Virus record (IMG/VR): IMGVR_UViG_3300005261_000049
Coordinates: 1-31,371 of that record
DNA: 31,371 bases
Source of the DNA: a virus
Taxonomy: Duplodnaviria; Caudoviricetes
Direction: 5' to 3' (one strand)
This document shows positions 1-31,371 of the stretch, in pieces. The translations under genes were made by a program, and so were the position numbers. How positions within the stretch are numbered: position 1 is the first letter of the stretch; each line of letters starts with the position of its first letter. The notes below the pieces were generated by a model. The model saw only the letters and a program-made list of their open reading frames with translations, was not told where the DNA came from and did no database searches.

Positions 1-1242
1 ATGCCTCTCACAGACACTTTCGTTAAGCAGATCAAGCACTCAGGCCGGCCTGCCGGTGACAAGCACAGCGATGCACAGGGCCTGTACTTGCATGTCAAAG
101 AGGCGGGCAAGTATTGGCGCTTGGCTTACCGCTTTGGTGGCAAGCAAAAGACGCTGGCCTTGGGTGTCTATCCAGCAGTGAGCCTGGCGAACGCGCGGCG
201 CAAGCGGGATGAGGCCAGGGAGCAGCTGGCCCTGGGTGCTGATCCCGGTGTGCAAAAGCGCGTCCAAAAGATGCAGTCAACCCAAGCCGCGGCCAATACC
301 TTTGAGACGGTGGCCAGGGAGTTCCACGCGACCAAGGCAGATAGCTGGAGCCCTGGGCACTCCATGCGCTGGATGCGCAGCATGGAAAAGGATGTGTTTC
401 CGACAGTGGGCAAAATGCTGCTGCCCGATGTCACCGCTCCCCTGATGCTGACCGTGCTCCGCAAGGTGGAGTCCCGAGGGGCCAGGGAGACTGCCAGCAA
501 GCTCAAGGAGCAGTCCGGGCAAGTCTTTCGCTATGGCATCCAGACGGGCCGCTGTACCTCAAACCCGGTCCCAGACTTGTCCGGAGCTTTGGCGCCAGTC
601 GTTGTAAAGCACATGGCGGCAGTGCTGGATCCCAAGGCTGCAGGCGCGTTGATGCGCGCGATTGACGGTTACCAAGGGCAGCCTTTGACACGTGCAGCCT
701 TGCTGCTCTCCGCTCTGCTGTTCCAGCGCCCGGGCAACATAAGGGCCATGGAGTGGGCGTGGATCGACTTTGAGGCTGCAATGATGACCATCCCTGCAGC
801 CAGCATGAAGCGAACGATTGAGGGGAAGATTAACGGCCGGCCGCACTTTGTGCCGCTGGCTCCACAGGCCATTGAAGTCCTGAAAGAAATTCACGCCCTC
901 ACTGGCCATGGCCGGTACGTTTTCCCCAGCGCGCGCACCGGGGAAAGGCCCATGAGTGACGCGACGGTGGGGGCTGCACTTAGAAGGCTTGGCTACACCA
1001 GCGATGAAATGACCGCGCACGGGTTCAGAGCCATGGCCAGAACGCTTTTGATTGAGCGGCTGCCAGGCATTCAGGCGGATGTAATCGAAGCGCAGTTAGC
1101 GCACGGTAAGTCTGGCCCACTGGGTGCCGCCTACGACCGAGCGGACTACATGGAGCAGCGCAGGCAATTGATGAGCATCTGGGCCAATTACCTTGACCAG
1201 ATCAAGAGTGGCGCAGAGATCATTCAGTTCAAGCAGGCATGA
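1..1242 (+). CDS. int: P4-type (IntA-like) tyrosine integrase with N-terminal Arm-DNA-binding (DUF4102-like) domain
   Basis: N-terminal DAQGLYLHV...KYWRLAYRFGGKQKTLALGVYPAVSLA; catalytic residues R (FQRPGNIR), HGFR, H (QLAH), Y (AAYDRA). Confidence 0.96.
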   Translation: MPLTDTFVKQIKHSGRPAGDKHSDAQGLYLHVKEAGKYWRLAYRFGGKQKTLALGVYPAVSLANARRKRDEAREQLALGADPGVQKRVQKMQSTQAAANTFETVAREFHATKADSWSPGHSMRWMRSMEKDVFPTVGKMLLPDVTAPLMLTVLRKVESRGARETASKLKEQSGQVFRYGIQTGRCTSNPVPDLSGALAPVVVKHMAAVLDPKAAGALMRAIDGYQGQPLTRAALLLSALLFQRPGNIRAMEWAWIDFEAAMMTIPAASMKRTIEGKINGRPHFVPLAPQAIEVLKEIHALTGHGRYVFPSARTGERPMSDATVGAALRRLGYTSDEMTAHGFRAMARTLLIERLPGIQADVIEAQLAHGKSGPLGAAYDRADYMEQRRQLMSIWANYLDQIKSGAEIIQFKQA

Positions 1243-1711: not shown

Positions 1712-2704
1712 GTGGCAGAGACCAAGAACATTGACGAGATTGCAGGCCGTCTGTCGAAGTACGTCTTCAAGCACTTCTTGTGGGCCACGCATCCGAAGAC
1801 CGACGACAACTTTGAGTGCACTAACGAGAAACACGTTGGCGAGGGCGGGAAGCCGAAGGCGACACATCCGGGCGACGTGGTCTTTCACTACCGTGACCCG
1901 TATCTCGGGAAGACGGTGTACCTGCATACAGATCTGAAGAGCTACGCGGAGGACACGATCACATCAACAAGACTACGCGGTGCCTTCAAGTCCCTCTGCA
2001 TGACCATCGACTGCGCGCGATGCTCGGATGCCTGGAGAGCCAAGTATTCCGTTGATGAGGGCGAGGCCCATGAGGTCCGCGGACTATTGTTCGTCCACAA
2101 CCATGACAACGGCTATGACAAGCCGTTCTACGACGCCGTCGATAAGGTAAATCTGCAGGCACTGCCGGTCGCACCCGGAACGCAACTGCACTATCTTGGT
2201 CCTCATGACATTCAGCGGCTCTACAGCATTGCAAACGACATCATTCGCCTAAAAGGCGAAGGAGAGTTGCCCAGCACGTACACCTTCTACTACCCGGACC
2301 TGGTAATGACGCGCCGACAAGGCGACGTTTGGGATCAACCTGCGACCGTTGAAACGTTGACGGCGCCGTACATCATCATCAAGCATGGTGCGCATGAAGC
2401 TCAGTCGGCCGGCTACGTCATCTACTACAACGCGCCTGCAACCAGCCCCGAGGAGTTTGAGTACTTTCTGGATAGCCTGTCCAGATTCCAAATGCTGGAG
2501 TCGGGTGAGCGCATCTTGCTGCGCGTCACTCACCCAGACGCACCGAACGACCTCAAGTCAGTCTTTCTCATGGCGCAGAAGAAGTACGTGAAGGCCTGGG
2601 GTTTCGATCCTGAACGCGAGGCGCTCTTGAGTCAGATGCAGATCGAGCGGATCACAAGCGTCACCAGCACCTACAACCCGGGAGACATGGGGTGGCGGGA
2701 ATGA
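1712..2704 (+). CDS. Putative PD-(D/E)xK nuclease; candidate defence effector (GapS4a-like)
   Basis: GGAGG RBS at 1703-1707 before GTG; 330 aa; THPGDVVFHY...LHTDLKSY resembles the D...(D/E)xK motif. Confidence 0.6.
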   Translation: MAETKNIDEIAGRLSKYVFKHFLWATHPKTDDNFECTNEKHVGEGGKPKATHPGDVVFHYRDPYLGKTVYLHTDLKSYAEDTITSTRLRGAFKSLCMTIDCARCSDAWRAKYSVDEGEAHEVRGLLFVHNHDNGYDKPFYDAVDKVNLQALPVAPGTQLHYLGPHDIQRLYSIANDIIRLKGEGELPSTYTFYYPDLVMTRRQGDVWDQPATVETLTAPYIIIKHGAHEAQSAGYVIYYNAPATSPEEFEYFLDSLSRFQMLESGERILLRVTHPDAPNDLKSVFLMAQKKYVKAWGFDPEREALLSQMQIERITSVTSTYNPGDMGWRE

Positions 2705-3801
2705 AGAAGCGAGCACACGGTCCGTCGCTCTACTACGCAAGCGACAAGAACGTTTTCGACGCGCTGAACCAGCACAAGGTGGATACGCCCACGGTGGTGA
2801 AACTGTTTCAGCGCCGGAACATCGTGGTGAGCAAGAAGACGCCAAGAGACGAGCTGGCCAAGTACTTTTCCACGTTGACGCACGACTACTACGACCACAA
2901 AGAGATCGCTGCCAGGCTGGGAGTGGCGGTGAGGCGGGAGCGCACTACTTCGATGGATGTATCGGGGGTCAGCGATACCGACGAGCTGCAAGGCGTCGTG
3001 GAGCAGTTGAAGAAGGAGTTAGAGGCGAGCGGCGACACCGTCCAGGTTTCACGAGATGGTGACAACATCAGCATCCGCGTCCAGTACTCGGAGGTTGACT
3101 ACAAGCGCAGCGAGTTCTCGCAAGTCCAAGTCCGCGACGGAACCATCGAGTTCGTCAAGTCAGCGGCAGGCTACGTCGTGCGCAACACGCAGAACGACTA
3201 CCTCACTGGAGTAAGAGAGACCTTGCTTGCCAAGGTGGAAAAGTCGACATCTGCACCACTGACTAAGGTTGTGGTCGCCCTTTTTGACATTCCTTCGGCA
3301 AAGCTGCGTTCCAAGTTCTTCCATGAACTGGCACGCTCATTGCCTAACTTCGTCCGGCGCGATGTGACGGATGTGTATGTATTCAAAGCCAAGCCCGAGA
3401 CGGATGGCGATGCAGATGATGGCGACGACGATGGTTCGGGGAGCCACGTTGAGAGGGTCTTTCTTCGCGGCAGCGGCGTGAGTCGGTCTGAGATCTTGAA
3501 TGAGCTGCTGGATGAGGAGGACTACTACATCGTCAAGATTGGATGGACCGCGACGGAATTGCTCGGCGATGGCAACGTGTACGACGTCGAGGCCGCGTTT
3601 GCTGACCCCAAAGACTGCACCGGCTTCTCGTTTATCTTGAGCGGTGTTTTCCCATTGGAAGAGGGCAAAGTCTCGACGAAGCGGCGGCCCCCGTACAAGC
3701 ACGAGATTGACGCACTGTCGCGCGTGATCGAGTCGAAGGCCAGGGACCTAGTGGCCGAGCTACGGTCGGAATATCTTGCTGTGGACGCCGGGGGCGAGTG
3801 A
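2701..3801 (+). CDS. Hypothetical protein, gene 2 of candidate defence operon (N-terminus reminiscent of GapS4b)
   Basis: ATGA overlap with upstream stop; ~366 aa; acidic loop DGDADDGDDDG; family resemblance is from memory only. Confidence 0.6.
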   Translation: MKKRAHGPSLYYASDKNVFDALNQHKVDTPTVVKLFQRRNIVVSKKTPRDELAKYFSTLTHDYYDHKEIAARLGVAVRRERTTSMDVSGVSDTDELQGVVEQLKKELEASGDTVQVSRDGDNISIRVQYSEVDYKRSEFSQVQVRDGTIEFVKSAAGYVVRNTQNDYLTGVRETLLAKVEKSTSAPLTKVVVALFDIPSAKLRSKFFHELARSLPNFVRRDVTDVYVFKAKPETDGDADDGDDDGSGSHVERVFLRGSGVSRSEILNELLDEEDYYIVKIGWTATELLGDGNVYDVEAAFADPKDCTGFSFILSGVFPLEEGKVSTKRRPPYKHEIDALSRVIESKARDLVAELRSEYLAVDAGGE

Positions 3802-4481
3802 TGCAAACCAGGTACAGGTGGTTTCGGATACAGCTCCCTGCTCGGGCCAGAGACTTGGCAGCACTTGTGGCTACGCGCTCGTTCGATTCGACCTCGCCGT
3901 CGGGCTTCGCTCGTGTGCCAGGCGGCATAGACGGAACCTCATACCGATTTCTATGGCGGTCTCGCGTAGTCGTTACGCGGCTAGATGCCGAAGGGGTTCC
4001 GACCTATGAGCAGATCGACAGCGTCAGCTTTACAGACTTTGCGCTGGTCGCGGTTGGAGATCTGACCTTTCTCCGTATCGAGAACCCTGGCCGGAATGTT
4101 CGCGACCTACTCAATGCACTTGAGACCTTGGTCGGCATGGGCTTCACTGTGAAGCCGGTCGTATTCGACAAAGGCCAGCCCTCCACGGTGTTCCGTTCGG
4201 TTGATGCCTCAAAACTAGTAGGCTTAAAAGTCGTCGGTGCTGTGGTGTCCGACGATCTGGTCGCACGGATGGAGTTCGCTTCCAAAGAGGGGATGGTGGT
4301 CGAGAACATGACAGTTCTTGACGGCTTGAAGTACAAGGTTGAGCACGCAGTGTTCGAACTCGTCCTAGGCGGGTTAAAGGGGCAAATTGCTTTTGCCGCG
4401 AACGGAACTGTGAAGATCAGTGGTCAAGTCGCCCCGAAGCTCGTTGGCTTGGTGGAGCAGGACTTGCATCTATTCGTTTGA
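3801..4481 (+). CDS. Hypothetical beta-rich protein, gene 3 of candidate defence operon
   Basis: TGATG overlap with upstream stop (alternative GTG start at 3798); ~226 aa. Confidence 0.65.
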   Translation: MQTRYRWFRIQLPARARDLAALVATRSFDSTSPSGFARVPGGIDGTSYRFLWRSRVVVTRLDAEGVPTYEQIDSVSFTDFALVAVGDLTFLRIENPGRNVRDLLNALETLVGMGFTVKPVVFDKGQPSTVFRSVDASKLVGLKVVGAVVSDDLVARMEFASKEGMVVENMTVLDGLKYKVEHAVFELVLGGLKGQIAFAANGTVKISGQVAPKLVGLVEQDLHLFV

Positions 4482-5106: not shown

Positions 5107-5661
5107 TTAATGATCGCTATTTTTTTTGTCGGCCTGGGCGCGTTGCGCAATTAGCATCTCTAAATCTTTGCGCCGCGCTGCAAAGGAGTCTCGCAGGAAA
5201 TTTAGTTCGGCTAGAGCTGCATCCCGGTCACGAATGATTTTTTCGGCCTCAATGTGAAGTTGCTCGGCTTGTTCTTCTATCGCATCTAGCTCTGAGATCT
5301 TTTCTTCTGATCGCTGAAAGTCCGCATCGGTTTTTGCGTTCTGAGCTAGCAATTGACTTTCGACAGAGATCCGCTGGATTTGGTTGACGAGGTTTTCATT
5401 GCGGAGTTTGACCATGTCATACCGCATCGAGAGCATCAAGACTTTGTTTTCTAAGGAAGATACAAGCAACTCAATTTGTTGAGCTGATATTGGAGCACTA
5501 GCCTTAGTAGAAAAAGATTCCTCCAGCCTTGCCACGATCTCTGCGTTCAGTGTTCGATTGTTGGACTTTGCAACTTCTTTTAGGCGGTCGCGCATGCCGT
5601 CAGGCATACGAACAAGCACCTTGTCGGCCTGATCCGATGGATACAAGTTCTTTTCAGCCAA
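5107..5661 (-). CDS. Arc/Mnt-family ribbon-helix-helix repressor with C-terminal coiled coil
   Basis: YPSDQADKVLVRMPDGMRDRLKEVAKSNNRTLNAEIVARLEESF is a typical Arc domain; TTG start. Confidence 0.88.
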   Translation of the reverse strand: MAEKNLYPSDQADKVLVRMPDGMRDRLKEVAKSNNRTLNAEIVARLEESFSTKASAPISAQQIELLVSSLENKVLMLSMRYDMVKLRNENLVNQIQRISVESQLLAQNAKTDADFQRSEEKISELDAIEEQAEQLHIEAEKIIRDRDAALAELNFLRDSFAARRKDLEMLIAQRAQADKKNSDH

Positions 5662-5698
5662 GCTATCACTCCAAGCGCAACAATATAAAAAATCAATC

Positions 5699-5770
5699 TA
5701 TCGAATCGCTATCTTTTGGTTGTCAGGTTGATAGCGATTCGATATATTTCATGGCATAGCAAGTCGCTAT
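5699..5770. promoter_or_regulatory. Operator region of the divergent promoter pair
   Basis: Perfect 15-bp inverted repeat TATCGAATCGCTATC (5699-5713) / GATAGCGATTCGATA (5730-5744), plus related ATAGC-aagtc-GCTAT (5756-5770), in an AT-rich intergenic region. Confidence 0.75.
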
Positions 5771-5787: not shown

Positions 5788-5964
5788 ATGAGCGGTACGA
5801 ACAAAGAGCCGGTTCAGTCTGTTTACATGCGAATTAAGCAAGCAAACCACGATTGGCTGAAAGCACAAGCGGAAAAGGAGGAGCGCCCGGTAACTTGGAT
5901 TGTTAACAAGTTGATTGAGCAAAGCCGCAAATCAGAAGAGGCGCAGCATGAAAAGCAGGCCTGA
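5788..5964 (+). CDS. Small RHH (Arc/CopG-like) DNA-binding protein, 58 aa, absent from the ORF track
   Basis: GAAAGGA RBS; MSGTNKEPVQSVYMRIKQANHDWLKAQAEKEERPVTWIVNKLIEQSRKSEEAQHEKQA has a beta-strand-helix-helix pattern. Confidence 0.8.
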   Translation: MSGTNKEPVQSVYMRIKQANHDWLKAQAEKEERPVTWIVNKLIEQSRKSEEAQHEKQA

Positions 5965-6002
5965 AAAAGGAAACGCCCCGGTAGTTGGAGCTACCGAGGC
6001 GT
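5962..6002 (-). terminator. Stem-loop with a U-rich tail on the minus strand (possible antisense-RNA terminator)
   Basis: ACGCCcCGGTAG-ttggag-CTACCGaGGCGT (5973-6002) preceded on + by AAAAAGGAA. Confidence 0.45.
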
Positions 6003-6040
6003 CGAGTGTCAAAAACCAAGCAACCAAACAAGGAATCGAC

Positions 6041-6295
6041 ATGACGGATTCTAAAGCACCTGCCGTAGCAAGCACCAGCGTTTCGCAACAGGCCAGCCGC
6101 GCTCCTATAGTCAATACGTTCCAGTCTGCTCGCCCCAAGGCAGCAGCAAGTCTTCTCGGTGTGGGGGTCTCCACATTCTGGCGCTGGGCCAAAGAACGCG
6201 AGGACTTCCCGAAAGCACGCAAGTTGTCCAGCAGTTGCACCGTTTTTGATGTGCAAGAGCTGATGGCATGGCGTGATGCCCAAGCCAAGCAGTGA
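6041..6295 (+). CDS. alpA: AlpA-family HTH regulator/excisionase
   Basis: AAGGA RBS; RPKAAASLLGVGVSTFWRWAKEREDFPKARKLSSSCTVFDVQELMAWRD; upstream ATG at 5948 is possible. Confidence 0.88.
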   Translation: MTDSKAPAVASTSVSQQASRAPIVNTFQSARPKAAASLLGVGVSTFWRWAKEREDFPKARKLSSSCTVFDVQELMAWRDAQAKQ

Positions 6296-6304
6296 GGGGT
6301 GGCG

Positions 6305-6559
6305 ATGACGACGACATCCATCACGTTCCTGATTGAGGCCGACAAGCTGCCTCATTACACGGACGCCTACCTGGCCCAGCTTTGGCACATCGCCCAAGCG
6401 AATCCAGCACCATTTGGTGATGCGCAGGCCTGTGACCTTGCCGAACAAGTAGGGCGCGAGATTGTGCGCCGCTGGCTGGCCACCACGCCGCCAGAGCTGT
6501 GGCACCACCAAGGTCGCCACGTCAGCCAATCCAACATTCAGGCCCCAGCGGAGAACTAA
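6305..6559 (+). CDS. Hypothetical protein (satellite/island accessory)
   Basis: GAGGGG RBS; protein-like sequence LWHIAQANPAPFGD; in operon with alpA. Confidence 0.75.
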   Translation: MTTTSITFLIEADKLPHYTDAYLAQLWHIAQANPAPFGDAQACDLAEQVGREIVRRWLATTPPELWHHQGRHVSQSNIQAPAEN

Positions 6560-6562
6560 ATC

Positions 6563-6817
6563 GTGAACATGAAGAACAAAGCCGCTCAGCCAGCGGCTCA
6601 GGCGGAGCTTTCCCTGGTTGATGCCATCGACAACATCCAGTGCCCGCTTCTTAAGGCGCAAGCCCTTTTGGCCATGACGTTTGGAGAGCCTGGGGAAGCC
6701 TTTCGATCTATGGGGGGCGACTACCAAGACCGTGTTTTTTGGACTATCAGCGACCTTGTGACCGAGGCCACCAAGGCCGTGACAGAGATGGCAGCGCTGG
6801 AGGGAGTGCAAGCATGA
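6563..6817 (+). CDS. Hypothetical small helical protein
   Basis: GGAG RBS; ATGA overlap with next gene. Confidence 0.75.
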   Translation: MNMKNKAAQPAAQAELSLVDAIDNIQCPLLKAQALLAMTFGEPGEAFRSMGGDYQDRVFWTISDLVTEATKAVTEMAALEGVQA

Positions 6818-7101
6818 GCAAGAAACCAAAAGCCTGCCCCGCAGACGAACGCCACATGCTGGCACTGCAATGCACTTGGGACATTAGCGAGCTGGCCCAG
6901 GCCGTAACGCGCATGGCTGACGAAGCCGCAGCAGATGGTGACGTGGCCGTAGAGGCGTTGCTGCGCTGCTATGGCGTGCGTATTGCCACGTTGAACTCAC
7001 AGGTGATGTCCTATCTCGACAAGGAAACGCAGGTGACCGCGGAGCACATGCACAAGGCAATCTTTGGACGCATGAAGCAGTTTGAGGTGGCAGAAGCATG
7101 A
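6814..7101 (+). CDS. Hypothetical small helical protein
   Basis: Start at ATG 6814 (MSKKPKAC...) after GGAG; ATGA overlaps at both ends. Confidence 0.75.
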   Translation: MSKKPKACPADERHMLALQCTWDISELAQAVTRMADEAAADGDVAVEALLRCYGVRIATLNSQVMSYLDKETQVTAEHMHKAIFGRMKQFEVAEA

Positions 7102-7505
7102 GCAAAAAGATCAAGACACCAAGCCACCCAAGTCCTTGGCACCCCGAATTCGTCGAGGCTCAGGAGAAGATCGTGCGCATCATCTTGGGCCAAGGCCCTG
7201 AAGCAATCTTCTTGCCGGAGCATGCTGAGCTGGTGCGCACGGCGGCCAAGTACGCCCCGCCCGAGCATGCAAAAAAGCTGGGGAACATGTTGCGCACGGT
7301 GGACTTCGTCGAGGCCAGCCAGGCTGCAAAACGTGTCATCGACGTGTATGGCCCAGGGGCGCTGACCTGGCCTGAGTACGCCCACCTGGTCGACAAGATG
7401 ATGCAGAGTGCTGATCCAGAGTTGGTGGAGAACTTCCGGCTGCAGGCGCAGGCGTGTGGTTTGCTGCCGCCAGATGCTGGCCTGCCTTTGTCTCTGCTGC
7501 ACTGA
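7098..7505 (+). CDS. Hypothetical protein
   Basis: GAGG RBS, ATGA coupling, 135 aa. Confidence 0.75.
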   Translation: MSKKIKTPSHPSPWHPEFVEAQEKIVRIILGQGPEAIFLPEHAELVRTAAKYAPPEHAKKLGNMLRTVDFVEASQAAKRVIDVYGPGALTWPEYAHLVDKMMQSADPELVENFRLQAQACGLLPPDAGLPLSLLH

Positions 7506-7523: not shown

Positions 7524-8012
7524 ATGGCTCATAACAAGAAAAAGCCGGTAGATCCTAGAGGTCCCCACGTTCGCATCTACTGGGAGTTAATCGACTCTGT
7601 GGCATGGCGTAGCCTTGGCTATGCCAGCCAGAGCTTGTTCCTGTTAATGCGACGAAAGCTGATGGGCACCAACAACGGCAACATCTCTGCAACCTTGGGT
7701 GATCTCAAACACTATGGGTGGAAGTCCTCTTCCACGCTGGCAAAAGCGCTCAAGGAGCTCCAGTTGTTGGGCTTCATTGCTGTAACACGCCAGGGTGGGA
7801 TTGCCTTCGGGCAAAAAGTTTGTACCCTTTACCGCTTTACGGATGTCGATGTGTATGAATTCCCAAAGCTTGGATTTGGGCCAATAGCTGCTACTAACGA
7901 CTGGAAGAAGTTTGCCTCCTTGGCCGAGGCTGATGCTGCCTTGGCACTCACGGAGGAAAACAATTCCGGCCTTCGGATTTCGAAGCGTATCGGTTCGGAA
8001 TCCGAAGCGTAA
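7524..8012 (+). CDS. Winged-helix protein, putative replication initiator
   Basis: NNGNISATLGDLKHYGWKSSSTLAKALKELQLLGFIAVTRQGG resembles the wHTH of phage/island initiators; repeats sit at its 3' end. Confidence 0.65.
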   Translation: MAHNKKKPVDPRGPHVRIYWELIDSVAWRSLGYASQSLFLLMRRKLMGTNNGNISATLGDLKHYGWKSSSTLAKALKELQLLGFIAVTRQGGIAFGQKVCTLYRFTDVDVYEFPKLGFGPIAATNDWKKFASLAEADAALALTEENNSGLRISKRIGSESEA

Positions 8013-8175
8013 AACGGGCCTGTCGGTTCGAATTCCGAAGCAGTGGGCGTTTTACTACTTCAGAAACTGAAGCAGTAGAAAAAATCAAAATCCGCCTCTA
8101 ACCCGCATGCAGCCTAGTTTTCTGGGCCTTGCGGGTTTTTTAATGCTGGAAAGCTCACTGCTTCGAAATTCGAAC
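7971..8175. repeat. Five 15-bp imperfect palindromes (STTC...GAAS), putative iterons/origin
   Basis: CTTCGGATTTCGAAG 7971, GTTCGGAATCCGAAG 7993, GTTCGAATTCCGAAG 8026, CTTCAGAAACTGAAG 8058, CTTCGAAATTCGAAC 8161; first spacings 22, 33, 32 bp. Confidence 0.75.
8100..8141 (+). terminator. Putative terminator of the alpA-rep operon
   Basis: AACCCGCA...TGCGGGTT stem (with inner GCCTAG/CTGGGC) followed by a T-run. Confidence 0.55.
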
Positions 8176-8610
8176 ACCTTTATATGCTGCCATCCATGCA
8201 GCAAGTTAGAGGTGCAGATTAGGTCTGTGTCGCGGTGACCCAGAACGCCAAACGTCGGCCTGCACCCATCGATCTACGGGCTGTCTGAGCGGCTGATCAG
8301 CGGTGAACGGACCACCTGGCGCACGATATGCGATCTGGAGGACGGGTAGTGGATTGCAGGGGGGACAAATGCGGCCGTCACGCGTGACATTGCCGTGACT
8401 GTGCGTGACAGCAACGCATGAAACAGGATGATAGGTCAAGCGGTAACGGGCTTGGATCATTACGTGCATGCCGCCGTAACGTTTCATGTAACGCCTGTAA
8501 CGTTACATGGGCGCAGAAAGCTGGGTGCCGGGCTTCTGAGCCGTAGGCCTAGGAGCAGGGCGTGCCAAACTGTTCCCCAACCGTTGGATAGCAGTTTCGC
8601 AACTGTTGCC

Positions 8611-9990: not shown

Positions 9991-10716
9991 ATGAACCAAC
10001 TCACTGTAGCGGGCCGTGCGCCCCTGACCATGACCAGTGCCGAGATTGGCGAGCTGGTCGAATCACGCCATGACAGTGTGAAGCGCACCATTGAACGCTT
10101 GGCCGATCGTGGTGTGATTCAACTTCCACCATTGGTGGATGTTCCAAACCACCTTGGTCAGACCGTAAGCGTCTACCAACTTGAGAAGCGTGACAGTTTG
10201 GTGGTGGTGGCCCAGCTCTCGCCCGAGTTCACAGCCCGCATCGTGGACCGCTGGCAAGAGTTGGAAGCACAGCAGGCACCAGCCTTGCCCGCCACCTACC
10301 TCGACGCCCTGCGCGCGCACCTTGCGTCTGAGGAAAAAGCCGCGGCCCTGGCCATTGAAGTCCAGAAGAAGGAGCAGGCCCTGGTGGAAGCGGCCCCCAA
10401 GGTGGAGTTCGTCGAGCGATATGTGCAGGCCAGCAGCGGGGCCTTGGGTTTCCGCCAGGTCTGCAAGACGCTGTGCCTCAATGAGAAGTGGCTGGCCGAG
10501 TTCTTGGAGCTGCACCAGATCATGTACCGCTTGGGCGGAAAACTCACCCCCTACCAGCAGCACATCCAGGCCGGCCGCTTTGAAGTGAAGACCGGTGTGT
10601 CGGATAGCGGCTATGGCTATGTGCAGCCCAAGTTCACCCCCAAGGGGGTGCAGTGGCTGGCCGCAGAGATTGCCAAGCACCATGCAGCCAAGCAGATGAA
10701 GGCGCTGGCAGCTTGA
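9991..10716 (+). CDS. Phage antirepressor: Rha-type N-terminal domain + ANT/KilA-C domain
   Basis: MTSAEIGELVESRHDSVKRTIERL...FTARIVDRWQELE (Rha); APKVEFV...PYQQHIQAGRFEVK...FTPKGVQWL (ANT). Confidence 0.9.
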   Translation: MNQLTVAGRAPLTMTSAEIGELVESRHDSVKRTIERLADRGVIQLPPLVDVPNHLGQTVSVYQLEKRDSLVVVAQLSPEFTARIVDRWQELEAQQAPALPATYLDALRAHLASEEKAAALAIEVQKKEQALVEAAPKVEFVERYVQASSGALGFRQVCKTLCLNEKWLAEFLELHQIMYRLGGKLTPYQQHIQAGRFEVKTGVSDSGYGYVQPKFTPKGVQWLAAEIAKHHAAKQMKALAA

Positions 10717-23041: not shown

Positions 23042-26000
23042 TGGCCGAATCTCAAATGCAATCCAGCAACCGCTTCAGCCAACAGCCGGCCTCCCAAGAG
23101 CAGGAAATCGACTGGAGCCAGTTCACCCCTATCCCCAAGGCCACCGGGCTGCAGCGCCTCAAGGACATTGGGGCATCGTTTGCCAGTGGTGCCGTGGGTG
23201 CAACCAAGGCTATCTCAGATGCTGCGGGTGCCGACAATGCTGTGTCGGCCGGGCTGGGCCGCATGCAGGATGCCACGCAAAGCTGGATCAGCCCTGAGCG
23301 CCAGGCTGAGCAGGAGCGCCGTGCTGCGACCATCCAGGCTGCCGAGAAAGGTGATAGCCGTCTGCGCGAAATTGGCGCGCAGCTGGGAGGAATTGCAGAA
23401 GCCCCTGTCAGCACGTTTGCGCAAGCTGCGGGCTCTGTGGTGCCAGTGGTGGCTAGCATGCTGGCCACCCGTGGGCGCGCCCCTGCAGCTTTGGTGGGCA
23501 CCACGTTGGGCGTGGCCCAGGGTGCCGGCGCCGTCAAGGGCAGCATCCATGAGGCCGTGAAAGATGAGCACTTGCAGGCCGGAGCTACCGAAGAAGCTGC
23601 CAGTGCCGCCGCAGAAAAGGCGCAAGCCTATGGCGGTAACAACACGAGACAGATCGCTCTGGGTGGGGCGTTGGGTGGCTTGGCCGCCCGATTTGGCGTG
23701 GAAGGCATGTTGGCCCGCAGCATGGCTGGGCGCGCCGCCGCTGGTGGTGCTTCTGCGCTGGGCCGCATCGGTGTGGGCGCTGTGTCTGAGGGAGCCCCCG
23801 AGTTGGTGCAAGGTGGCCAGGAGCGTCTGGCAGCCAACCTGGCACTGCAAAACGAAGGGTTTGACACTCCCACATGGCAGGGCGTAGCAGGGCAGGCCGT
23901 GGCGGAAGGTGTGGCCGGCACCATGCTGGGCGGTGTCACCAATGCCTTTGCCCACGGACAACCCCGGCAGAGCGAACCTCAGACCCCGAGCGATCCACCC
24001 ACCGCTGCAGGAGCCCCCGCCGAACCGACTGTGCAGGAGGCCGCCCCTGCAGTCGCCGCACAAGCGTCCACCATTGATCCTGACGACAACCCAGAAACAG
24101 GGATTGATCCCGAGCTGTCGCCCGCGGCCCAACCGGGCATCGACCCTGCTGCCGGCCCGCTGTCGCGCAATGTGGCCAAGGAGATGGAGCGTGGGGCCAT
24201 GCCAGGGGGGCAGGCCACACCTGCGCCGCGCCCCATCCATGAACGCATCCAGGATCTGCCCGATCAGGAGCGCACGCAGGCGATCATCCTGGCCGACGAG
24301 ATCAACAACCTGGACAACCCGGAGGGCGTACGCCAGTTTCGCCGTACGGAGCTGGACAGCTTGCTGCAGCAGCATGAACAGCAGGTCGCAGCCGATGGTC
24401 CCATCTCCCGCAACCTGTCGGCCCACCGTCCGAGCACGGCACTGGCCACCAGCGCGTTGACCGAAGACGATCCCGCCGATTGGCACAAGGTTTACCGCCG
24501 CAACCCCGTGGGCGTGCCCTATCAGAGCGCCGGCAACCCGCTGGCCGATGCGCAGCAGGCGGTGCGCCAGAGCACCGAATACACGGACCCCCAGCGCGTG
24601 CAGGCCGTGCGCGGCGAACTGGAAGATGCTTGGCTGGCACTGAATGTGAGCAATGAGCCTGTCTCGCAGCAGGAGACCCTCAGCGCGCCTGTCAATCGCG
24701 GCGACATCACCCCAGAGATTGACGCTCGGGTGCGCGCCGGCCGTGTGGTCAGCGGGGTGCGCAACGCCTTTGAAGGCGGTGCCCCCAACACCCTGCGCGT
24801 GATCCAAAGCGTGAATCAGGCGCTGCGCAACATTGGTGAGCAGTCGCTGACACAGGACGAGATTGCCCGTATTCGCCGGGTTGCCGATGCGCGCACGGCC
24901 TTCATGGGCCTGAACTTGCCCGCGGCATTGCCTGAAGACCTTGTGCAGCAAGTCGTACCAGCGGATGCTATGGCCGATAACAGCGCCATGGAGGCGCTGA
25001 TTCCCGAACGCCACTCCAAGCAGCAACGTGCGCAAGCACCCGCCAATTTGATGCGGGCAAATCCCGTAAGAAACCAAAACGCGTTTCAAACGCAGGTGGC
25101 TGCAGCACCAGGGGCTCCAAACCCTGCATTCGAGGGCTCTTCTGTTGCAAACGGAGAAGCAGCAGCGGCAGCGGAAACCGTGGTGGCTGACGGGGGCCAA
25201 ATCGCCCAAATTGATCCGAAAAGCCGCATGGAGACTGGGTTTGACGGTGGTGGCCAAAACGCTGTTCAAGCGCCGATGGCGACCGCCTCCGCATCGCCAC
25301 AGGCCCAGCTACAGCGCCAGGAATGGCGTGACGCTGAAAAGCGCCGCCGCGCTCCCGGCAACCGCGCCCGCTCCAATGCGTATGACGCCAATCCTTTCAA
25401 GGCTTTCTTGGGCAAGCATGGAGTGACCGTTGACCATCGTGCGGACTTTGCTCCTGGTGCAACTGAGCAACGCCAGGCCATGGTGCCGGGCTATGGCCCG
25501 ATCTTCCGCCGTACAGGTAAGCAGCTGGACGAGCTGGCACAGGCCGCCTACGAGGAAGGCTTTATTGCCACACCCGATGATGTGCAGGTGCAAGACCTGA
25601 TCAGCCGGGTGCTGCGCGGTGAGCGCGTGATTGCGGAATATTCGGCAGATGCGGTGCAAGCTGAGATGGACAGTCTCATTGCCGAGCAGATGGCCATGGC
25701 GGAAATGGAAACCGCACAGACAGACCCCGCATCGCTGGACTTTGACGAGGATGTGGCTTTGGCGCACCTGGCCGACATTTCTGACGCATCCACTTTTGAG
25801 ATACTGGACGCAGACATTCCTTGGGATGCCGAGCCCAGCAACACAACCACCGAGGCTGCTATGCGCGCCTTGGGCTTTACCGAAGAGGAAATTCAAGATG
25901 CCATTGCCCAAGAACCCAGCCGAGCGCAAGAAGTTGGCCAAGGCCGTCGCCTCGCTGATGAGTCTGCCACCCAAGCAACGCAAGGCAGTGATGGCAGAGC

Positions 26001-29000
26001 ACCTGAAGCGCCGGGGGCTGGAGCAGCCGACACAGCGCTGAGCACCTATACCCGCGAAGAAGTTCTTTCCCGTCAGTCCGAGCAAGAGCGTGCACAGTCC
26101 GAGCAAGCCCGTGCTGACCTTCAAGCCGCGCGCCGCGAGCAGGCTGACCGCGAGCGTCCCGAGTTCATCCTGACCGGCAGTGACCGCAACGCGGACGCAA
26201 ATCCCAACCAAGGGGACATCTTCAGCCCGTCTAACGCTATCAATAATGAAGTTGGTAGCGCACGCCAGCCAATAAAGCATTCGCAAAAGGAAAGCAAAAG
26301 CAGCAACGCCAAACGGCAAGCAGCTACTCAAAAAGTAGCGCAACGTGCCGTTCAGCGCATCGAGGACGTGGGCGAAAAGATTGGTGGAGCCCGTAAGGAC
26401 GTGTGGACTGGCTTCCGTGAGGATCTGCGCGTCGTGGCTGACGACCAGATCAAGGTGCAGCCCCTGTCCAAGGTCTGGCCCAGCACCGATTACCAAAAGC
26501 TGATCGATGCCGGAGCTGGTGCGGATGCCGTGGCCATGGTGCGTGCCCTGCGGGACGCTGTGGAGACCAAGCCGCGCCAGAGCTGGAAGGTAAGCCGCTG
26601 GGCCGATCAGGTGAAGGTGCTGCGCAGTTTCGCCACCGACTTGCTGGATGGCAAGGTCAATGTGGCTGCCTTGAAAGCCGATATTGGGAAGCTATCGAGC
26701 CGCTCCCTGCGGGACGTGCTGGGCCGCGCTGAACTGTATGAAGCGGTGGGGCATGGCAAGAGCCTGGAGGGCATCACCTTTGGAGAGCACCACTATTCGC
26801 TGTACCGTGGCCGTGAGAACGTGCACCTGTGGGCCGTGGAGCAAGGGGCCAAGGGCGGCACCTTCGGCAACTGGCCCCGCGAAATTGCCACTGGGGAAAC
26901 CAAAGAGGCTGCCCTGGAGGCGTTCAAGAAGGCGTATGCCAACCTGGACAGCACCAAGGAAAAGAAGGCCGCGTCCTTCGACATCATCACCGAGCAGTTC
27001 TCGAGCGATTACTTCGTGGGCAAGAAGATGGGCCGCACCTATGCCAAGCTGGCTGGACCCTTCAAAACCACCCGGGAGGCCCGCGCCTACCGTGACGGCA
27101 ACGAGGCCGAGCTGCTGAAGTCCCTGGAGGTGTTCAAGCAGATCCCGCAGGAGCGTGAAGACACTAACCGCCCCCGCGTGGGTCAGGACTATCGCCAGGG
27201 CCAGGACGTAAACCCCTCACAGTTCCGCGAAACCTTCGGCTTCCGAGGTGTGGAGTTTGGCAACTGGGTGGAGCAGGGCAAGCGTCAGCAGGAGCTCAAT
27301 GATGCCTATGACGCGCTGATGGATCTGGCGGCAGTGTTGCAGTTGCCGGCCAAAGCCATGTCACTCAATGGTGAGCTGGGCATGGCCTTCGGTGCCCGCG
27401 GCATGGGTGGTGTGGGGGCCTTCAAGGCCCACTATGAGCCTGGCAAGGTGGTGATCAACCTGACCAAGCGCACGGGTGCTGGGAGTTTGGGCCACGAGTG
27501 GTGGCATGCCGTGGACAACTACTTCTCGCGGATGCGCAGCAGTGCGAATGGCTACATGACCGACAGCAGCGACGTGAAGGCCGCTGCGAATGGTGCCAAA
27601 TACTTTCCGCGCGGGGAGGGCGTGCGCCCGGCCATGATCGAAGCCTTTGGCGCTGTGATGCGTGCCATCAACGCCACCGCCTTGCGCGCCCGCTCGGCCA
27701 AGCTGGATGAGCGTCGCACCAAGGACTATTGGTCCACTGACATCGAACTGAGCGCTCGCGCCTTTGAGAGCTATCTGATCGGCAAGCTGCAGGACCAAAA
27801 CGCCAGCAACGACTATCTGGCCAACGTAGTGAGTCCCAAGGCATGGGAGGCAGCTGCGACGGTGGGTTTACGCCAGGATGATGCCTATCCTTACCCAACA
27901 GCGGACGAGATCCAGGCCATTCGCGCCGGCTTTGACCACTTCTTCCAGACTGTGGAAACCCGTGAGACGGATCATGGCCTAGCGCTTTTTAGCAGCCGCA
28001 CCACGCCGCCCGAGTCCAAGCTTTCGCTGGAGCGTGTGCAGCAGATTGTGCAAACGGCCCTTCGGGGCATCCCCGGTTCGCCACCAGTCCACGTCGTGCA
28101 CGGCCCCGCTGACCTCGGTTTGGTCGTTGCGGGAGAGGACGTGCATTCGGGCGTCACCCTCCGCAGTGGGGACATTTACGTGTTTCAGTCCGGAGTAGGG
28201 TCTGAACTCGATGTGCTTAAGACGGTCTTTCATGAGTTGTTCCATCGTGGCTTGCGAAACGTTCTGCCTGCTGATCAGTATGTGCAGACTATGCTGGATC
28301 TGGCTAAGCGTGATGATCGGGTCCAATCCTACGCGAATGCTTGGAAGGGCCTGCCAGTGGCTGCCGAGCAACGTGCGGAGCTGGCCAAGATGGGATTTGC
28401 TGGCAGTGAGCTGCAGGCCCGCTTTGAAGCCCTGGCCATTGAGGAAGGGCTGGCCGTTGTGGCCGAAGAACTCAAAGCCGAGAAGCAAGCTGGCACCCGC
28501 TCACTGCGCTTGCGTTCCCTGACGACGTGGCTGGCCAGTATTGCCGACAAGCTGGGTCTGACCAGTGTGGCCAACGCCATCCGCCGCATGAGCTACAACG
28601 AGGCTGAGCGCTTCGTACTGTCTGCGATTGATGCATCTGGCCAGGCCGTGGCCACCGCCCACACCACCACCAACCCAGCCGCGGACGTGAACAAGATGCG
28701 CACGGCCGCCCCGCAAGAGGTGGCGAAGGTGGTGGGGGACACCCTCAAGGGCATGACCGTGCAGAACCTGCGCAAGCAGGCCGGCTTCAAGGTGACTGAT
28801 TACATGGGCATTGGCTTGCAGTTCCTGGGCCGCCGCCAGTTGACAGAGGTTTACAGCCCGATCCTGCCCCAGCTCAAGCGCTACAGCGACCTGATGGCAC
28901 GCATGGATGCGGACAAGAACGAAGCCGGTGCTGGTGCGGACGAGCTGGCCACCGAATGGGGCAAGCTTAAGGACGAGACCGCCCTGGCAGAGCTGATGCA

Positions 29001-31371
29001 CGACGCTACTTTGGCCCAGATCGACCCCGCCAAGGACTTTGTTGAAGGGGACAACAAGGCCGAATGGCAGCGCCTGAAGGCCCGCTATGGCGCCCTGACC
29101 CCAGAGGCCCGTGGCATCTACCAGCGCGCCCGTGACTCCTACCGTGATCACATGCGCCAGGTGCGCCAGGCCATCAAGGAGCGCATCGAGCGCAGCGATA
29201 TGACCGGCCAACGCAAGGCCGACATGATCAAGCAACTCGATGGCGACTTCTTTGGGCACATCAAGGGCGTCTACTTCCCTCTGGCCCGTTTTGGCCAGTA
29301 TGTGGTGGTGGTCAAGAACGCTGAGGGTAAGGCCGTGAATGTCAGCCGTGCCGAAACCATGGCCGAGGCGGACACCCTGCGCGGCACGCTGGCCGGTGCC
29401 TACTCTGCGGAGCAGGGCTATACCGTGGGCAAGGTGCTCAAGTCCAAGGACTTTGTGGCTGACCGTGACACCGTGGGCTCTGGCTTCATCCAGGAGCTGT
29501 ATGGCTTGCTCGAAAAGCAGGGCATGGACGCCAAGCAGCGCGCCGAGCTGGAGGATTCGATTGGGCAGTTGTACCTGGCATCGATGCCGGATCTGAGCTG
29601 GGCCAAGCACGGTATCCACCGCAAGGGCACGGCCGGCTTCAGCCAGGACGCGCGCCGCGCCTTCGCGCAAAACACCTTCCACGGTGCCCGCTACTTGGCC
29701 AAGCTGCGTTACTCGGATCTGCTGCAGGACGAGCTGACGGACATGGATAAGTACATTTCCATGCACGACAGCGATGCCAAGTACCCATCGGTGCGCGCCC
29801 GCCAGGTGCTGGACGAGATGGTCAAGCGCCATGAGTCGGCCATGAATCCGACCGGTAACCCGCTGTCCACCGCCTTGACCAGCTTTGGCTTCATGTTCCA
29901 TTTGGGTTTGTCGCCAGCTTCGGCCATGGTCAACCTGACCCAGACCGCGCTGGTGGCCTATCCAGTGATGGGCGCCAAGTGGGGCTATGCCAAGGCCAGC
30001 GAGGCGCTGCTGCGCGCCAGCAAGGAGACGGTGCTGGGCAAGAACGACATCACCAACTTCCTGAACAGCGAGGAGGAGGCTGCGTTTGACGAGGCGGTGC
30101 GCTCGGGCGTCATCGATGTGACCATGGCACATGACCTGGCCGGCATTGCGCAGGGTGAGGACTCGGGCGTGATGTGGCGGATCCGGCCGCTGATGAAGTG
30201 GGCCAGCTTCCTGTTCCATCATGCTGAGAAGTTCAACCGCAGCGCGACCTTTGTGGCGTCTTACCGTCTGGCGCGTGATGCTGGCAGCGACCACTACCGT
30301 GCCTATGCGGAGGCGGTGAAGGCAACCTATGACGGCCACTTCGACTACAGCAGCAATAACCGACCACGGTTCATGCAAGGCAATGTGGCCCGGGTGCTAC
30401 TGCTGTTCAAGCAGTACAGCCAGAACATGGTCTATGCCTTTGCCCGCTCTGCACAGCAGTCGCTGAAGGGGCAGACGGCCAAGGAGCGCGCCGAAGCCCG
30501 CAAGATGCTGGGTGGGTTGCTGGTGATGCACGGCATGGCAGCTGGTGCCCTGGGCCTGCCTATGGTGTCGACCCTGCTGGCCGTGGCGTCCATGCTGGGT
30601 GGCGACGATGACGAACCCTTTGACGCACAGATTGCGCTGCAGAACATGCTGGCCGACACCTTGGGGCAAAAGCCAGCAGAGGTGCTGTCGCATGGCCTCT
30701 CGCGCCTGACGCCTTGGGATACTTCCGGCCGTGTCGGCTTGGACAATCTGATCTTCCCCGACCTGCAGGAAGGTCTGGAGGGCCAGCGCCTGGCTGAGTC
30801 CGCCATGGCATCTGCCCTGGGTCCGGTGGCTGGTATCGGGGTGAACGTGCTGCGCGGTTTGCAGGATATGGCCGATGGCGACTACCTGCGCGGCCTGGAA
30901 GGCATGATGCCCAGCTTCTTGCGTGGTCCGCTCAAGTCCATTCGCTATGGCGCAGATGGCGTGGTGGACCGTAGCGGGATTGTGGTCAAGGATGATGTGG
31001 ACTATGCCGGCCTCATTGGTCAGTTCGCCGGGTTTTCTCCCTCTGAAGTGCGACTGGCCTATGAGGGCAAGGCGGCCATCAACAAGCACGACCGCGCCTT
31101 GGGTGCACGCCGATCCACGCTCATGGAGCAGTTCGCGCTGGCTGCTATGGCAGGAGACGAGGAAGGCAAGGTCGAAGCGCGCGAAGCCATCAGCCGCTTC
31201 AACGAGAAGAACCCGTCACGCGCGATCAAGCCGATGCAGCTGGCCCAGAGTGTGCGCATGCGCCAGCGCCGGATCAACCAGGCCCAAGAGGGGGTGTACT
31301 TGCCGCGTAATCGACGCGATGCGGTGGAGGCAGGGAGGTTTGCCGCAACGGGTGATGGTGAAGACGACTGA
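23038..31371 (+). CDS. Giant PLxRFG/LPD-domain polyvalent protein (probable ejected protein)
   Basis: 2777 aa; YFPLARFGQY (PLARFG 29278-29295); FGFRGVEFGNWV...GHEWWHAVD...YWST..ELSARAFESY (LPD1-like); second HELFH motif; G/A-rich N-terminus. Confidence 0.9.
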   Translation: MMAESQMQSSNRFSQQPASQEQEIDWSQFTPIPKATGLQRLKDIGASFASGAVGATKAISDAAGADNAVSAGLGRMQDATQSWISPERQAEQERRAATIQAAEKGDSRLREIGAQLGGIAEAPVSTFAQAAGSVVPVVASMLATRGRAPAALVGTTLGVAQGAGAVKGSIHEAVKDEHLQAGATEEAASAAAEKAQAYGGNNTRQIALGGALGGLAARFGVEGMLARSMAGRAAAGGASALGRIGVGAVSEGAPELVQGGQERLAANLALQNEGFDTPTWQGVAGQAVAEGVAGTMLGGVTNAFAHGQPRQSEPQTPSDPPTAAGAPAEPTVQEAAPAVAAQASTIDPDDNPETGIDPELSPAAQPGIDPAAGPLSRNVAKEMERGAMPGGQATPAPRPIHERIQDLPDQERTQAIILADEINNLDNPEGVRQFRRTELDSLLQQHEQQVAADGPISRNLSAHRPSTALATSALTEDDPADWHKVYRRNPVGVPYQSAGNPLADAQQAVRQSTEYTDPQRVQAVRGELEDAWLALNVSNEPVSQQETLSAPVNRGDITPEIDARVRAGRVVSGVRNAFEGGAPNTLRVIQSVNQALRNIGEQSLTQDEIARIRRVADARTAFMGLNLPAALPEDLVQQVVPADAMADNSAMEALIPERHSKQQRAQAPANLMRANPVRNQNAFQTQVAAAPGAPNPAFEGSSVANGEAAAAAETVVADGGQIAQIDPKSRMETGFDGGGQNAVQAPMATASASPQAQLQRQEWRDAEKRRRAPGNRARSNAYDANPFKAFLGKHGVTVDHRADFAPGATEQRQAMVPGYGPIFRRTGKQLDELAQAAYEEGFIATPDDVQVQDLISRVLRGERVIAEYSADAVQAEMDSLIAEQMAMAEMETAQTDPASLDFDEDVALAHLADISDASTFEILDADIPWDAEPSNTTTEAAMRALGFTEEEIQDAIAQEPSRAQEVGQGRRLADESATQATQGSDGRAPEAPGAGAADTALSTYTREEVLSRQSEQERAQSEQARADLQAARREQADRERPEFILTGSDRNADANPNQGDIFSPSNAINNEVGSARQPIKHSQKESKSSNAKRQAATQKVAQRAVQRIEDVGEKIGGARKDVWTGFREDLRVVADDQIKVQPLSKVWPSTDYQKLIDAGAGADAVAMVRALRDAVETKPRQSWKVSRWADQVKVLRSFATDLLDGKVNVAALKADIGKLSSRSLRDVLGRAELYEAVGHGKSLEGITFGEHHYSLYRGRENVHLWAVEQGAKGGTFGNWPREIATGETKEAALEAFKKAYANLDSTKEKKAASFDIITEQFSSDYFVGKKMGRTYAKLAGPFKTTREARAYRDGNEAELLKSLEVFKQIPQEREDTNRPRVGQDYRQGQDVNPSQFRETFGFRGVEFGNWVEQGKRQQELNDAYDALMDLAAVLQLPAKAMSLNGELGMAFGARGMGGVGAFKAHYEPGKVVINLTKRTGAGSLGHEWWHAVDNYFSRMRSSANGYMTDSSDVKAAANGAKYFPRGEGVRPAMIEAFGAVMRAINATALRARSAKLDERRTKDYWSTDIELSARAFESYLIGKLQDQNASNDYLANVVSPKAWEAAATVGLRQDDAYPYPTADEIQAIRAGFDHFFQTVETRETDHGLALFSSRTTPPESKLSLERVQQIVQTALRGIPGSPPVHVVHGPADLGLVVAGEDVHSGVTLRSGDIYVFQSGVGSELDVLKTVFHELFHRGLRNVLPADQYVQTMLDLAKRDDRVQSYANAWKGLPVAAEQRAELAKMGFAGSELQARFEALAIEEGLAVVAEELKAEKQAGTRSLRLRSLTTWLASIADKLGLTSVANAIRRMSYNEAERFVLSAIDASGQAVATAHTTTNPAADVNKMRTAAPQEVAKVVGDTLKGMTVQNLRKQAGFKVTDYMGIGLQFLGRRQLTEVYSPILPQLKRYSDLMARMDADKNEAGAGADELATEWGKLKDETALAELMHDATLAQIDPAKDFVEGDNKAEWQRLKARYGALTPEARGIYQRARDSYRDHMRQVRQAIKERIERSDMTGQRKADMIKQLDGDFFGHIKGVYFPLARFGQYVVVVKNAEGKAVNVSRAETMAEADTLRGTLAGAYSAEQGYTVGKVLKSKDFVADRDTVGSGFIQELYGLLEKQGMDAKQRAELEDSIGQLYLASMPDLSWAKHGIHRKGTAGFSQDARRAFAQNTFHGARYLAKLRYSDLLQDELTDMDKYISMHDSDAKYPSVRARQVLDEMVKRHESAMNPTGNPLSTALTSFGFMFHLGLSPASAMVNLTQTALVAYPVMGAKWGYAKASEALLRASKETVLGKNDITNFLNSEEEAAFDEAVRSGVIDVTMAHDLAGIAQGEDSGVMWRIRPLMKWASFLFHHAEKFNRSATFVASYRLARDAGSDHYRAYAEAVKATYDGHFDYSSNNRPRFMQGNVARVLLLFKQYSQNMVYAFARSAQQSLKGQTAKERAEARKMLGGLLVMHGMAAGALGLPMVSTLLAVASMLGGDDDEPFDAQIALQNMLADTLGQKPAEVLSHGLSRLTPWDTSGRVGLDNLIFPDLQEGLEGQRLAESAMASALGPVAGIGVNVLRGLQDMADGDYLRGLEGMMPSFLRGPLKSIRYGADGVVDRSGIVVKDDVDYAGLIGQFAGFSPSEVRLAYEGKAAINKHDRALGARRSTLMEQFALAAMAGDEEGKVEAREAISRFNEKNPSRAIKPMQLAQSVRMRQRRINQAQEGVYLPRNRRDAVEAGRFAATGDGEDD

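Follow-up and report, generated by a model that had tools for sequence, protein, structure and literature searches.

We analysed a 31,371-nt stretch of DNA (the window) that makes up the whole of IMG/VR record IMGVR_UViG_3300005261_000049, a provirus assigned to Caudoviricetes for which CheckV gives a completeness of 51%. The edges of the record are the ATG of an integrase gene and the last stop codon, so absence of tail or lysis genes from it covers positions up to 31371 only, and the tail-less state was therefore tested on relatives. The window contains no tRNA gene, and an exact 25-mer from its end had no match in metagenome and viral contigs. A contig of isolate run X9 holds a 98.8% identical copy and extends by 6 kb or more beyond 31371 (6.1 or 13.4 kb under the two readings of the record coordinates). 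The sister of the window is an element of Comamonas halotolerans (the sister element), whose capsid protein is 92% identical and whose att site lies 227 bp behind its giant gene. From left to right, the window carries int, Hp1-3, arc on the minus strand, alpA, four small ORFs, a gene for a 162-aa helix-turn-helix (HTH) protein, a 1.6-kb gap, rha/ant, two regulator-like ORFs, terS, terL, and genes for the portal, scaffold, capsid, cement, an unknown protein, the adaptor, a 654-aa protein and a 2777-aa protein:

1..1242, plus strand: P4-type tyrosine integrase (Pfam, PHROG)
1712..4481, plus: 3HP anti-phage cassette Hp1, Hp2, Hp3, cargo (PADLOC E = 7.6e-79, 3.1e-40 and 0.003)
5107..5661, minus: Arc-like ribbon-helix-helix regulator, likely repressor (PF03869, E = 1.5e-14)
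5695..5770, no strand: inverted repeats (19-nt arms, 95% complementary) over the best sigma-70-like promoter between arc and alpA, likely operator
5915..6295, plus: AlpA/excisionase-like regulator (PF05930, phrog_66)
6299..7505, plus: four small ORFs without known function, three of them common to the sister element
7524..8012, plus: HTH_36-like winged-helix protein (162 aa), likely replication initiator (ESM Atlas lead, HTH_36 on 18% of one cluster)
7969..8195, no strand: four TTCG-N4-CGAA palindromes spaced 22, 33 and 135 bp, likely iterons/origin
9991..10716, plus: Rha/KilAC antirepressor (PF03374, PF09669)
10727..11482, plus: 251-aa protein without known function (no Pfam, PHROG or NCBIfam match; not in the sister element)
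11544..12233, plus: phrog_8117 winged-helix protein, candidate late regulator, directly before terS
12211..14598, plus: small and large terminase (PF20901, phrog_1482, phrog_979; terS of Sf6 type; terL 76% identical to that of Acidovorax phage AP1)
14595..16730, plus: P22-like portal (PF16510, E = 3.7e-94)
16975..17916, plus: likely scaffold protein (from its position; kept in all relatives)
18188..19294, plus: major capsid protein of PF13252/N4-gp56 type (PF13252, TIGR04387; PDB 26DE, phage A1002, T=9, E = 2.6e-101)
19367..19768, plus: cement (decoration) protein (PDB 26DE chain W, E = 0.007)
19852..20271, plus: head-operon protein of unassigned role (phrog_2498; homologue in KPP25 and AP1)
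20290..20961, plus: SU10-type adaptor (PF24175, E = 7e-20; PDB 26FB chain T, E = 0.003)
21077..23041, plus: likely ejection protein 1, 654 aa (phrog_11341)
23038..31371, plus: giant LPD5-LPD1-LPD39-PLxRFG protein, 2777 aa, likely ejection protein (domain matches)

A sequence-only reading of this DNA had described a satellite-style left arm (P4-type integrase, AlpA and defence cargo) joined to podoviral head and ejection genes, and searches with Pfam, PHROG and PADLOC bore this out. Close homologues of the integrase (n = 15 examined) lie directly behind tRNA-Arg in 13 cases and behind tRNA-Gly in two. Several belong to islands that also carry an AlpA-like gene and a gene for an 820-aa protein, presumably a primase. 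Because this integrase family inserts at tRNA-Arg(UCU), attL of the window is placed at such a gene, probably about 175 bp upstream of int and outside the record. The Hp1, Hp2 and Hp3 genes stand in a row, the last being weak in PADLOC (E = 0.003) and matching phrog_5850 at 1e-11. The cassette is missing from the sister element, where other cargo occurs; in a Comamonas odontotermitis relative with its integrase at tRNA-Leu, Hp1/Hp2 homologues (3HP-like) are found at the opposite end, behind the giant gene (L003:8375-11167). The promoter at 5720-5748, at the likely operator, agrees with the consensus at 10 of 12 positions, which is a consensus match only.

The AF2 model of the 162-aa protein reached a pLDDT of 78, and Foldseek returned weak winged-helix matches, including Rep initiators, none at E <= 0.001. 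Three of 12 tail-less elements have its gene, as against none of 11 tailed ones, and the four palindromes at the gene's end recur in the sister element with identical spacing. We predict that protein and palindromes are initiator and origin. Directly after the origin, the sister element has genes for a methyltransferase, a helicase-like 900-aa protein and a 305-aa protein (L057:4188-9635), presumably a type III restriction-modification system plus an Mrr-like protein. This position appears to be a second cargo slot, filled by genes in the sister and by the 1.6-kb gap in the window; the gap holds an exact 24-bp tandem duplication with short repeats (8568-8657), non-coding and outside the stretch common to the sister. 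No primase or helicase family was matched among the 27 main window ORFs (Pfam, PHROG), as the sequence-only reading had said. The wider view that a replication module is lacking stood less well, given the candidate initiator with its iterons. Nor is missing replication a family trait, because recognisable phage replication genes occur in 8 of 9 att-bounded members of the larger of two subclades (primase-helicase in four, initiator plus IstB-like loader in three, DnaB in one). Left arms in that subclade are of phage type, two of them with S24 repressors, and those in the window's own subclade are of island type, with AlpA and small ORFs.

Two further regulators lie ahead of the head operon. The Rha/KilAC antirepressor might derepress a resident helper. 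The model of the phrog_8117 protein reached a pLDDT of 87, with weak Foldseek matches to winged-helix regulators, none at E <= 0.001. All 12 tail-less elements compared, and 8 of the 11 tailed ones, have a winged-helix gene ahead of terS. Late activation thus does not have to come from a helper, contrary to what had been proposed for this DNA; the late operon may be switched on by the element's own phrog_8117-type regulator.

The head operon ends in the adaptor, the sole tail-side protein retained in the window, which keeps 43 of 47 residues conserved in tailed phages. The cement gene had a weak PHROG match to an Rz-like spanin (E = 3e-5), which we set aside in favour of the match to PDB 26DE chain W; the A1002 cement protein gp49 has 143 aa, according to the available text of its description (PMC13730344). 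A 'tape measure' PHROG match was likewise dismissed as a short motif common to ejection protein 1. The AP1 gene in the slot of ejection protein 1 also matches phrog_2534, 'released from the phage upon host infection'. For the giant protein, the nearest functional lead is gp47 of phage phi24B (LPD5/LPD1/LPD38), which is found in virions and proposed as an ejection protein in the portion of the report available (10.64898/2026.04.10.717836). Across elements the giant protein is a mosaic of 2016-2777 aa with conserved N-terminus and PLxRFG C-terminus and variable middle domains. AP1 (L368, 19048-23386) has the same head operon, but two proteins of 848 and 541 aa replace the giant LPD/PLxRFG protein, the larger matching a P22-type 'released upon infection' family.

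Profile and six-frame searches upheld the claim that the window, while keeping an SU10-type adaptor, has no nozzle (phrog_8040), tail tube, tail fibre, holin, endolysin or other lysis gene. Nine tail and lysis profiles or single queries built from relatives gave no six-frame match in the window at E <= 1, and as a positive control the nozzle, nozzle-rope and tail-tube profiles matched 3 of 3 complete phages. ORFs in the window's gaps (8 against Pfam, 6 against PHROG) had no match, and the giant protein matched no tail, spike or receptor-binding family.

We gathered relatives with the C-terminal 600 aa of the giant protein, which matched 40 genome and 79 viral loci; the adaptor, used as a single query, retrieved none. 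In eleven relatives, direct repeats of 16-63 bp mark both ends, at the 3' ends of six tRNA types (Ser, Thr, Val in five, Asp, Leu in two, and Pro), and these elements measure 34,139-38,438 bp. In all 11, the adaptor is followed by two ejection-type genes and then by att or cargo, with 227-6093 bp between the giant gene and att in the ten elements measured. Profiles of six tail and lysis genes had no match inside att in any of the 11; a single endolysin match, in G465, lay 500 bp outside. Additional ORFs, 150 searched against Pfam and 61 against PHROG (partly overlapping) plus about 35 others, gave no tail or lysis family, the scans covering about two thirds of the 337 candidate ORFs in relatives. 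The tail-less elements come from Comamonadaceae, with the named hosts Comamonas halotolerans, C. testosteroni, Alicycliphilus denitrificans, two Acidovorax MAGs, a Diaphorobacter MAG and Ottowia thiooxydans. A capsid search of 401 host-family genomes, a sample centred on the closest relative and hence biased, returned nine matches at E <= 1e-40. Seven of these nine close matches were tail-less, and the objection that homologues might mostly be complete phages and this copy a one-off deletion was not borne out.

Such elements have been scored at 51-73% by CheckV and filed as half-complete prophages. Two of 17 have a broken morphogenesis gene, namely a portal with a stop codon (G084) and a frameshifted ejection gene accompanied by two insertion-sequence copies (G002), and the giant genes of 2000-2800 aa are intact in 17 of 17. 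Cargo across the family includes 3HP, restriction-modification-like and toxin-antitoxin genes. Between giant gene and att, two elements carry an RHS-repeat gene of 1500-1600 aa (L241:13560-18356, L256:2962-7485), and a CsrA-like regulator gene lies behind the giant gene in a Paenacidovorax element (G381, L219-L220, 20080-20884). Distant records carrying a related PLxRFG domain, among them short ones of Vibrio type, were set aside (27 of 30 have an adaptor). The short ones look truncated, and the roughly 16-23 kb between their adaptor and the PLxRFG match would accommodate a tail. Of 16 IMG/VR records that lack a phrog_8040 match, several that are fragments or belong to other phages (G497, G502) were kept out of the tail-less count.

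The nozzle is present in 34 of 50 IMG/VR records, and complete phages with the same head, 56-64 kb in size, encode nozzle, tube and lysis proteins. In two att-bounded Comamonas prophages (G936 and G001:C3; sizes of 56.4 and 59.9 kb for the pair) tail and lysis genes lie behind the giant gene; in others the tail block comes right after the adaptor. The same head operon order and families are shared by Pseudomonas A1002/KPP25 (Kochitakasuvirus), Acidovorax AP1 and the two Comamonas prophages, and AP1 is 76% identical to the window in terL, 61% in portal, 57% in capsid and 43% in adaptor. A1002 is the closest phage with a solved structure (E = 2.6e-101 for the capsid, 0.003 for the adaptor and 0.007 for the cement protein). 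According to the published account in its available part, A1002 has a T=9 head whose adaptor bears a split nozzle (gp42 and gp39), followed by tube and fibres (PMC13730344). Genes missing from the tail-less family match the A1002 nozzle base gp42 (phrog_8040) and the C-terminal part of the nozzle rope gp39 (phrog_26502); a third corresponds to a 318-aa KPP25 protein (phrog_10969), which we equate with the tail tube gp37 by gene counting. The cut therefore separates head-internal and head-bound parts from those distal to the adaptor. Measured against a complete KPP25/A1002-like podophage, portal, capsid, cement and adaptor are present, and nozzle base, nozzle rope, tube and lysis genes are absent. 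The A1002/KPP25 group, with its 56-64 kb genomes encoding split nozzle, tube, fibres and lysis and, in A1002, a T=9 head, differs from the family in these features; it is likely the parent group of the tail-less family and the class from which helpers come.

Tail-less elements formed one clade in trees of the portal (11 of 26 chosen sequences, support 96/94; 17 of 47, support 88), the PLxRFG domain (12 of 27, 95/97) and the scaffold (15 of 29, 89/95). These trees included seven tail-less elements without verified att (the window, G381, G489, G491, G524, G535 and G528, the map of the last matching that of G939), and the more careful versions omitted long-branch sequences and near-duplicates. 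Portal and PLxRFG trees agree on two subclades, one holding the window with the C. halotolerans and C. testosteroni elements and the other the remainder; portal, scaffold, capsid and PLxRFG all place the window as sister to the C. halotolerans element, deep within the tail-less clade. The capsid tree sets two tail-less clades apart, with monophyly not rejected (p-AU = 0.106). The stem leading to window and sister measures 0.59 changes per site, and divergence of their capsids peaks in the N-arm (47% versus 81% among tailed relatives) and P-domain (57% versus 80%). Between window and sister, dN/dS was 0.09-0.17 over eight genes at dS of 0.6-2.0; over eight non-independent tail-less pairs it was 0.04-0.09 for the portal and 0.02-0.13 for the capsid. 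Head genes of the tail-less elements are under purifying selection (dN/dS 0.02-0.17), and with the 11 att-bounded relatives this agrees with the expectation, voiced from the sequence, of conserved tail absence alongside selected head genes. By these trees, the tail-less elements appear to be a single old lineage.

Other genes have moved across this boundary. Three tail-less adaptors group with three different tailed phages (100/100, 99/99, 100/99), and the adaptor tree shows eight changes, with p-AU of 2e-96 for a 14-member subclade. For example, G490 and G491 are 95% identical in capsid, 97% in portal and 47% in adaptor, each adaptor being nearest a different tailed phage. The adaptors of window and sister agree at 85/75% in the helix bundle, against 47% in the beta-dock (domain limits approximate). 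The cement (p-AU = 1e-73) and terL (four changes) trees are mosaic as well. In G003, G381, G494 and G524 the large terminase is of an unrelated type (about 30% identical) that occurs in tailed phages as well, a packaging module swapped under a constant portal. Proteins that join after the procapsid (adaptor, cement, terL) are, as tree topology indicates, exchanged with tailed phages. The adaptor swaps echo the cf-PICIs, in which adaptor and connector determine tail choice, as stated in the available part of the cf-PICI preprint. Because cement and terminase are mosaic too, adaptor swaps are no proof of tail tracking; adaptor and nozzle identities were also uncorrelated among 28 tailed phages (Spearman -0.07, permutation p = 0.54), and what the swaps indicate is therefore contact with helpers.

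Window family and cf-PICIs are alike in having an integrase, an AlpA-type regulator, their own small and large terminase, portal, capsid and adaptor, variable defence cargo and no tail or holin gene (here, in the window up to its end and inside att in the 11 relatives), and in both the adaptor is more variable than the rest of the head. In the accessible portions of their descriptions, cf-PICIs have a median size of 14 kb, carry primase, HNH nuclease, protease and connector, and use long non-contractile tails (cf-PICI preprint; PMC10085698); a Podoviridae helper could not give them tails (cf-PICI preprint). The family differs in its 34-38 kb size (34.1-38.4 kb, against about 10-18 kb for cf-PICIs), P22-like portal, N4-gp56-type capsid, scaffold, cement and own ejection proteins. 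Instead of a primase or replicase, of which there is none among the 27 window ORFs, the window has a candidate winged-helix initiator with iterons, and no family match in the window was found for an HNH nuclease, prohead protease or head-tail connector. Capsid and portal belong to PF13252 and PF16510, and cf-PICI capsids to PF05065, as given in the part available of PMC13230959. Of the proposed identity as a larger podoviral analogue of cf-PICIs, the att-bounded relatives and their single clade sustain the core, and the absence of replication and the borrowing of late activation are not supported as stated.

Other systems share some of these features, as far as the available text of each report goes. 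The Streptomyces satellite Ando (PMC13587820) and the satellite-plasmid cf-PISP (PMC13230959), both 13-16 kb, likewise have their own capsid and no tail genes, with helper tails used or proposed; Ando takes siphoviral helper tails, cf-PISP clusters with cf-PICIs, and those portions mention no ejection proteins. The Stx phage phi24B resembles the window in its giant LPD5/LPD1 virion protein, proposed as an ejection protein, and in its podoviral portal-adaptor-nozzle plan with a T=9 head, but is a complete phage with two adaptors, nozzle, needle and fibres (10.64898/2026.04.10.717836). No podoviral capsid-forming satellite was found in the literature searched, most subscription papers and preprint supplements lying outside its scope; within that literature, tail borrowing has so far been described only for long-tailed satellites.

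We consider it probable that the window belongs to a capsid-forming satellite independently derived from KPP25/A1002-like podophages, which takes nozzle, tube, fibres and lysis from a helper. Upon derepression of arc/alpA the element would be excised from tRNA-Arg, and its iterons would be replicated by the winged-helix initiator with host helicase and primase. The phrog_8117 protein would turn on the head operon, and portal, scaffold and diverged capsid protein would build a self-specific procapsid, possibly T=7 as opposed to the helper's T=9. The element's own terminase would package its DNA, its adaptor would dock on the portal, and the head would be loaded with its own ejection proteins. 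A KPP25/A1002-like helper in the same cell would then add nozzle subunits onto the adaptor, followed by tail tube and fibres, and the particles would leave when the helper lyses the cell. In P22 and T7, podoviral tails are put together on the filled head one subunit at a time, and DNA is lost from heads that have no nozzle. Since the tail is built in this way, borrowing would probably happen inside the co-infected cell, unlike the capture of free tails by cf-PICIs. The smaller head is our hypothesis: related capsid structures include entries with 7 and with 9 chains, phages of 38-44 kb use the same capsid family, and the size ratio of a 36-kb element to a 59-kb helper (0.61) stands beside a T=7/T=9 volume ratio of 0.69. 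Simple loss of genes, with a T=9 head filled by headful packaging, would fit these sizes as well.

That the window is simply the left part of a complete prophage, with a tail and lysis operon beyond 31371, would suit a record that ends at a stop codon with a CheckV score of 51%, the complete relatives G001:C3 and G936 with their tail block behind the giant gene, and the near-identical isolate contig that runs on past the window end. We nevertheless judge it very unlikely, since four proteins (portal, scaffold, capsid, PLxRFG) join the window, deep in the tail-less clade, to the C. halotolerans element whose att follows the giant gene after 227 bp. Decaying prophages that lost a modular tail block, possibly in one step, and persist by vertical descent would explain the stop codon in G084 and the frameshift and insertion sequences in G002. 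A single origin, dN/dS near 0.1 at dS up to 2, different integrases at six tRNA sites in several genera within a tight size range, and intact 2000-2800-aa genes in all 17 elements speak against decay, and we give it correspondingly little weight.

Two further accounts seem to us improbable. The nozzle of this family was not found elsewhere in 7 of 8 host genomes searched, so that a resident helper of this family is usually not seen; in the eighth, a co-resident prophage with a different capsid family carries a nozzle and an adaptor 27% identical. As a side observation, the Acidovorax MAG G462 holds, next to its tail-less element (C55, L237-L238), a cryptic 28.8-kb prophage bounded by att at tRNA-His (C10 45398-74273, L242-L244), with head, tail block and lysis genes, in which neither terminase nor replication genes were recognised. 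Among tailed adaptors, that of this prophage comes closest (74%) to the tail-less element's own, making the prophage a possible resident tail donor. The rarity of resident nozzles, together with replication and repressor genes of their own in most members, would suit a self-sufficient particle, in which a tail-less head with adaptor and giant ejection protein infects alone and escapes by host lysis or vesicles. The giant protein, though, is of the same family as in tailed phages and has no tail, spike or receptor-binding match, the adaptor keeps the residues conserved in tailed phages, and in A1002 and phi24B, as far as the available descriptions go, the nozzle sits on the adaptor and holds the needle. 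Alternatively, the head genes could serve the host by soaking up helper tail subunits or, in the manner of a gene transfer agent, by packaging random host DNA with tail genes elsewhere, and the common defence cargo (3HP, restriction-modification-like, toxin-antitoxin) would accord with such a role. Yet most hosts have no nozzle or tube locus elsewhere, and a patchy element (9 of 401 genomes) bounded by att, with its own integrase and terminase, is unlike a domesticated locus; gene transfer agents occupy a fixed locus without integrase or att and keep parts at other loci, and here att lies at six tRNA types. Interference and transfer can, moreover, coexist.

Returning to a helper-dependent satellite, the borrowing of tail and lysis is what gene content suggests, and a fuller version is one we hold slightly better than even. 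By that version, these elements would be a separate, podovirus-derived satellite family that keeps a procapsid of its own, made of portal, scaffold and a fast-evolved capsid protein and possibly T=7 instead of T=9, along with its own ejection machinery, and pirates short-tail subunits from many helpers by adaptor swaps; tail piracy would have evolved a second time, on a different virion plan, and host range would be set by the helper's tail. If true, theft of the tail only would be a convergent strategy not peculiar to cf-PICIs, and satellites could have twice the size that current detectors expect. The family would also amount to a natural deletion experiment, in which head core, adaptor and ejection proteins travel with the genome and nozzle, tube, fibres and lysis can be supplied in trans, and the role of the LPD/PLxRFG giant protein would become testable. 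Finally, such satellites would move defence cargo among Comamonadaceae of water and wastewater.
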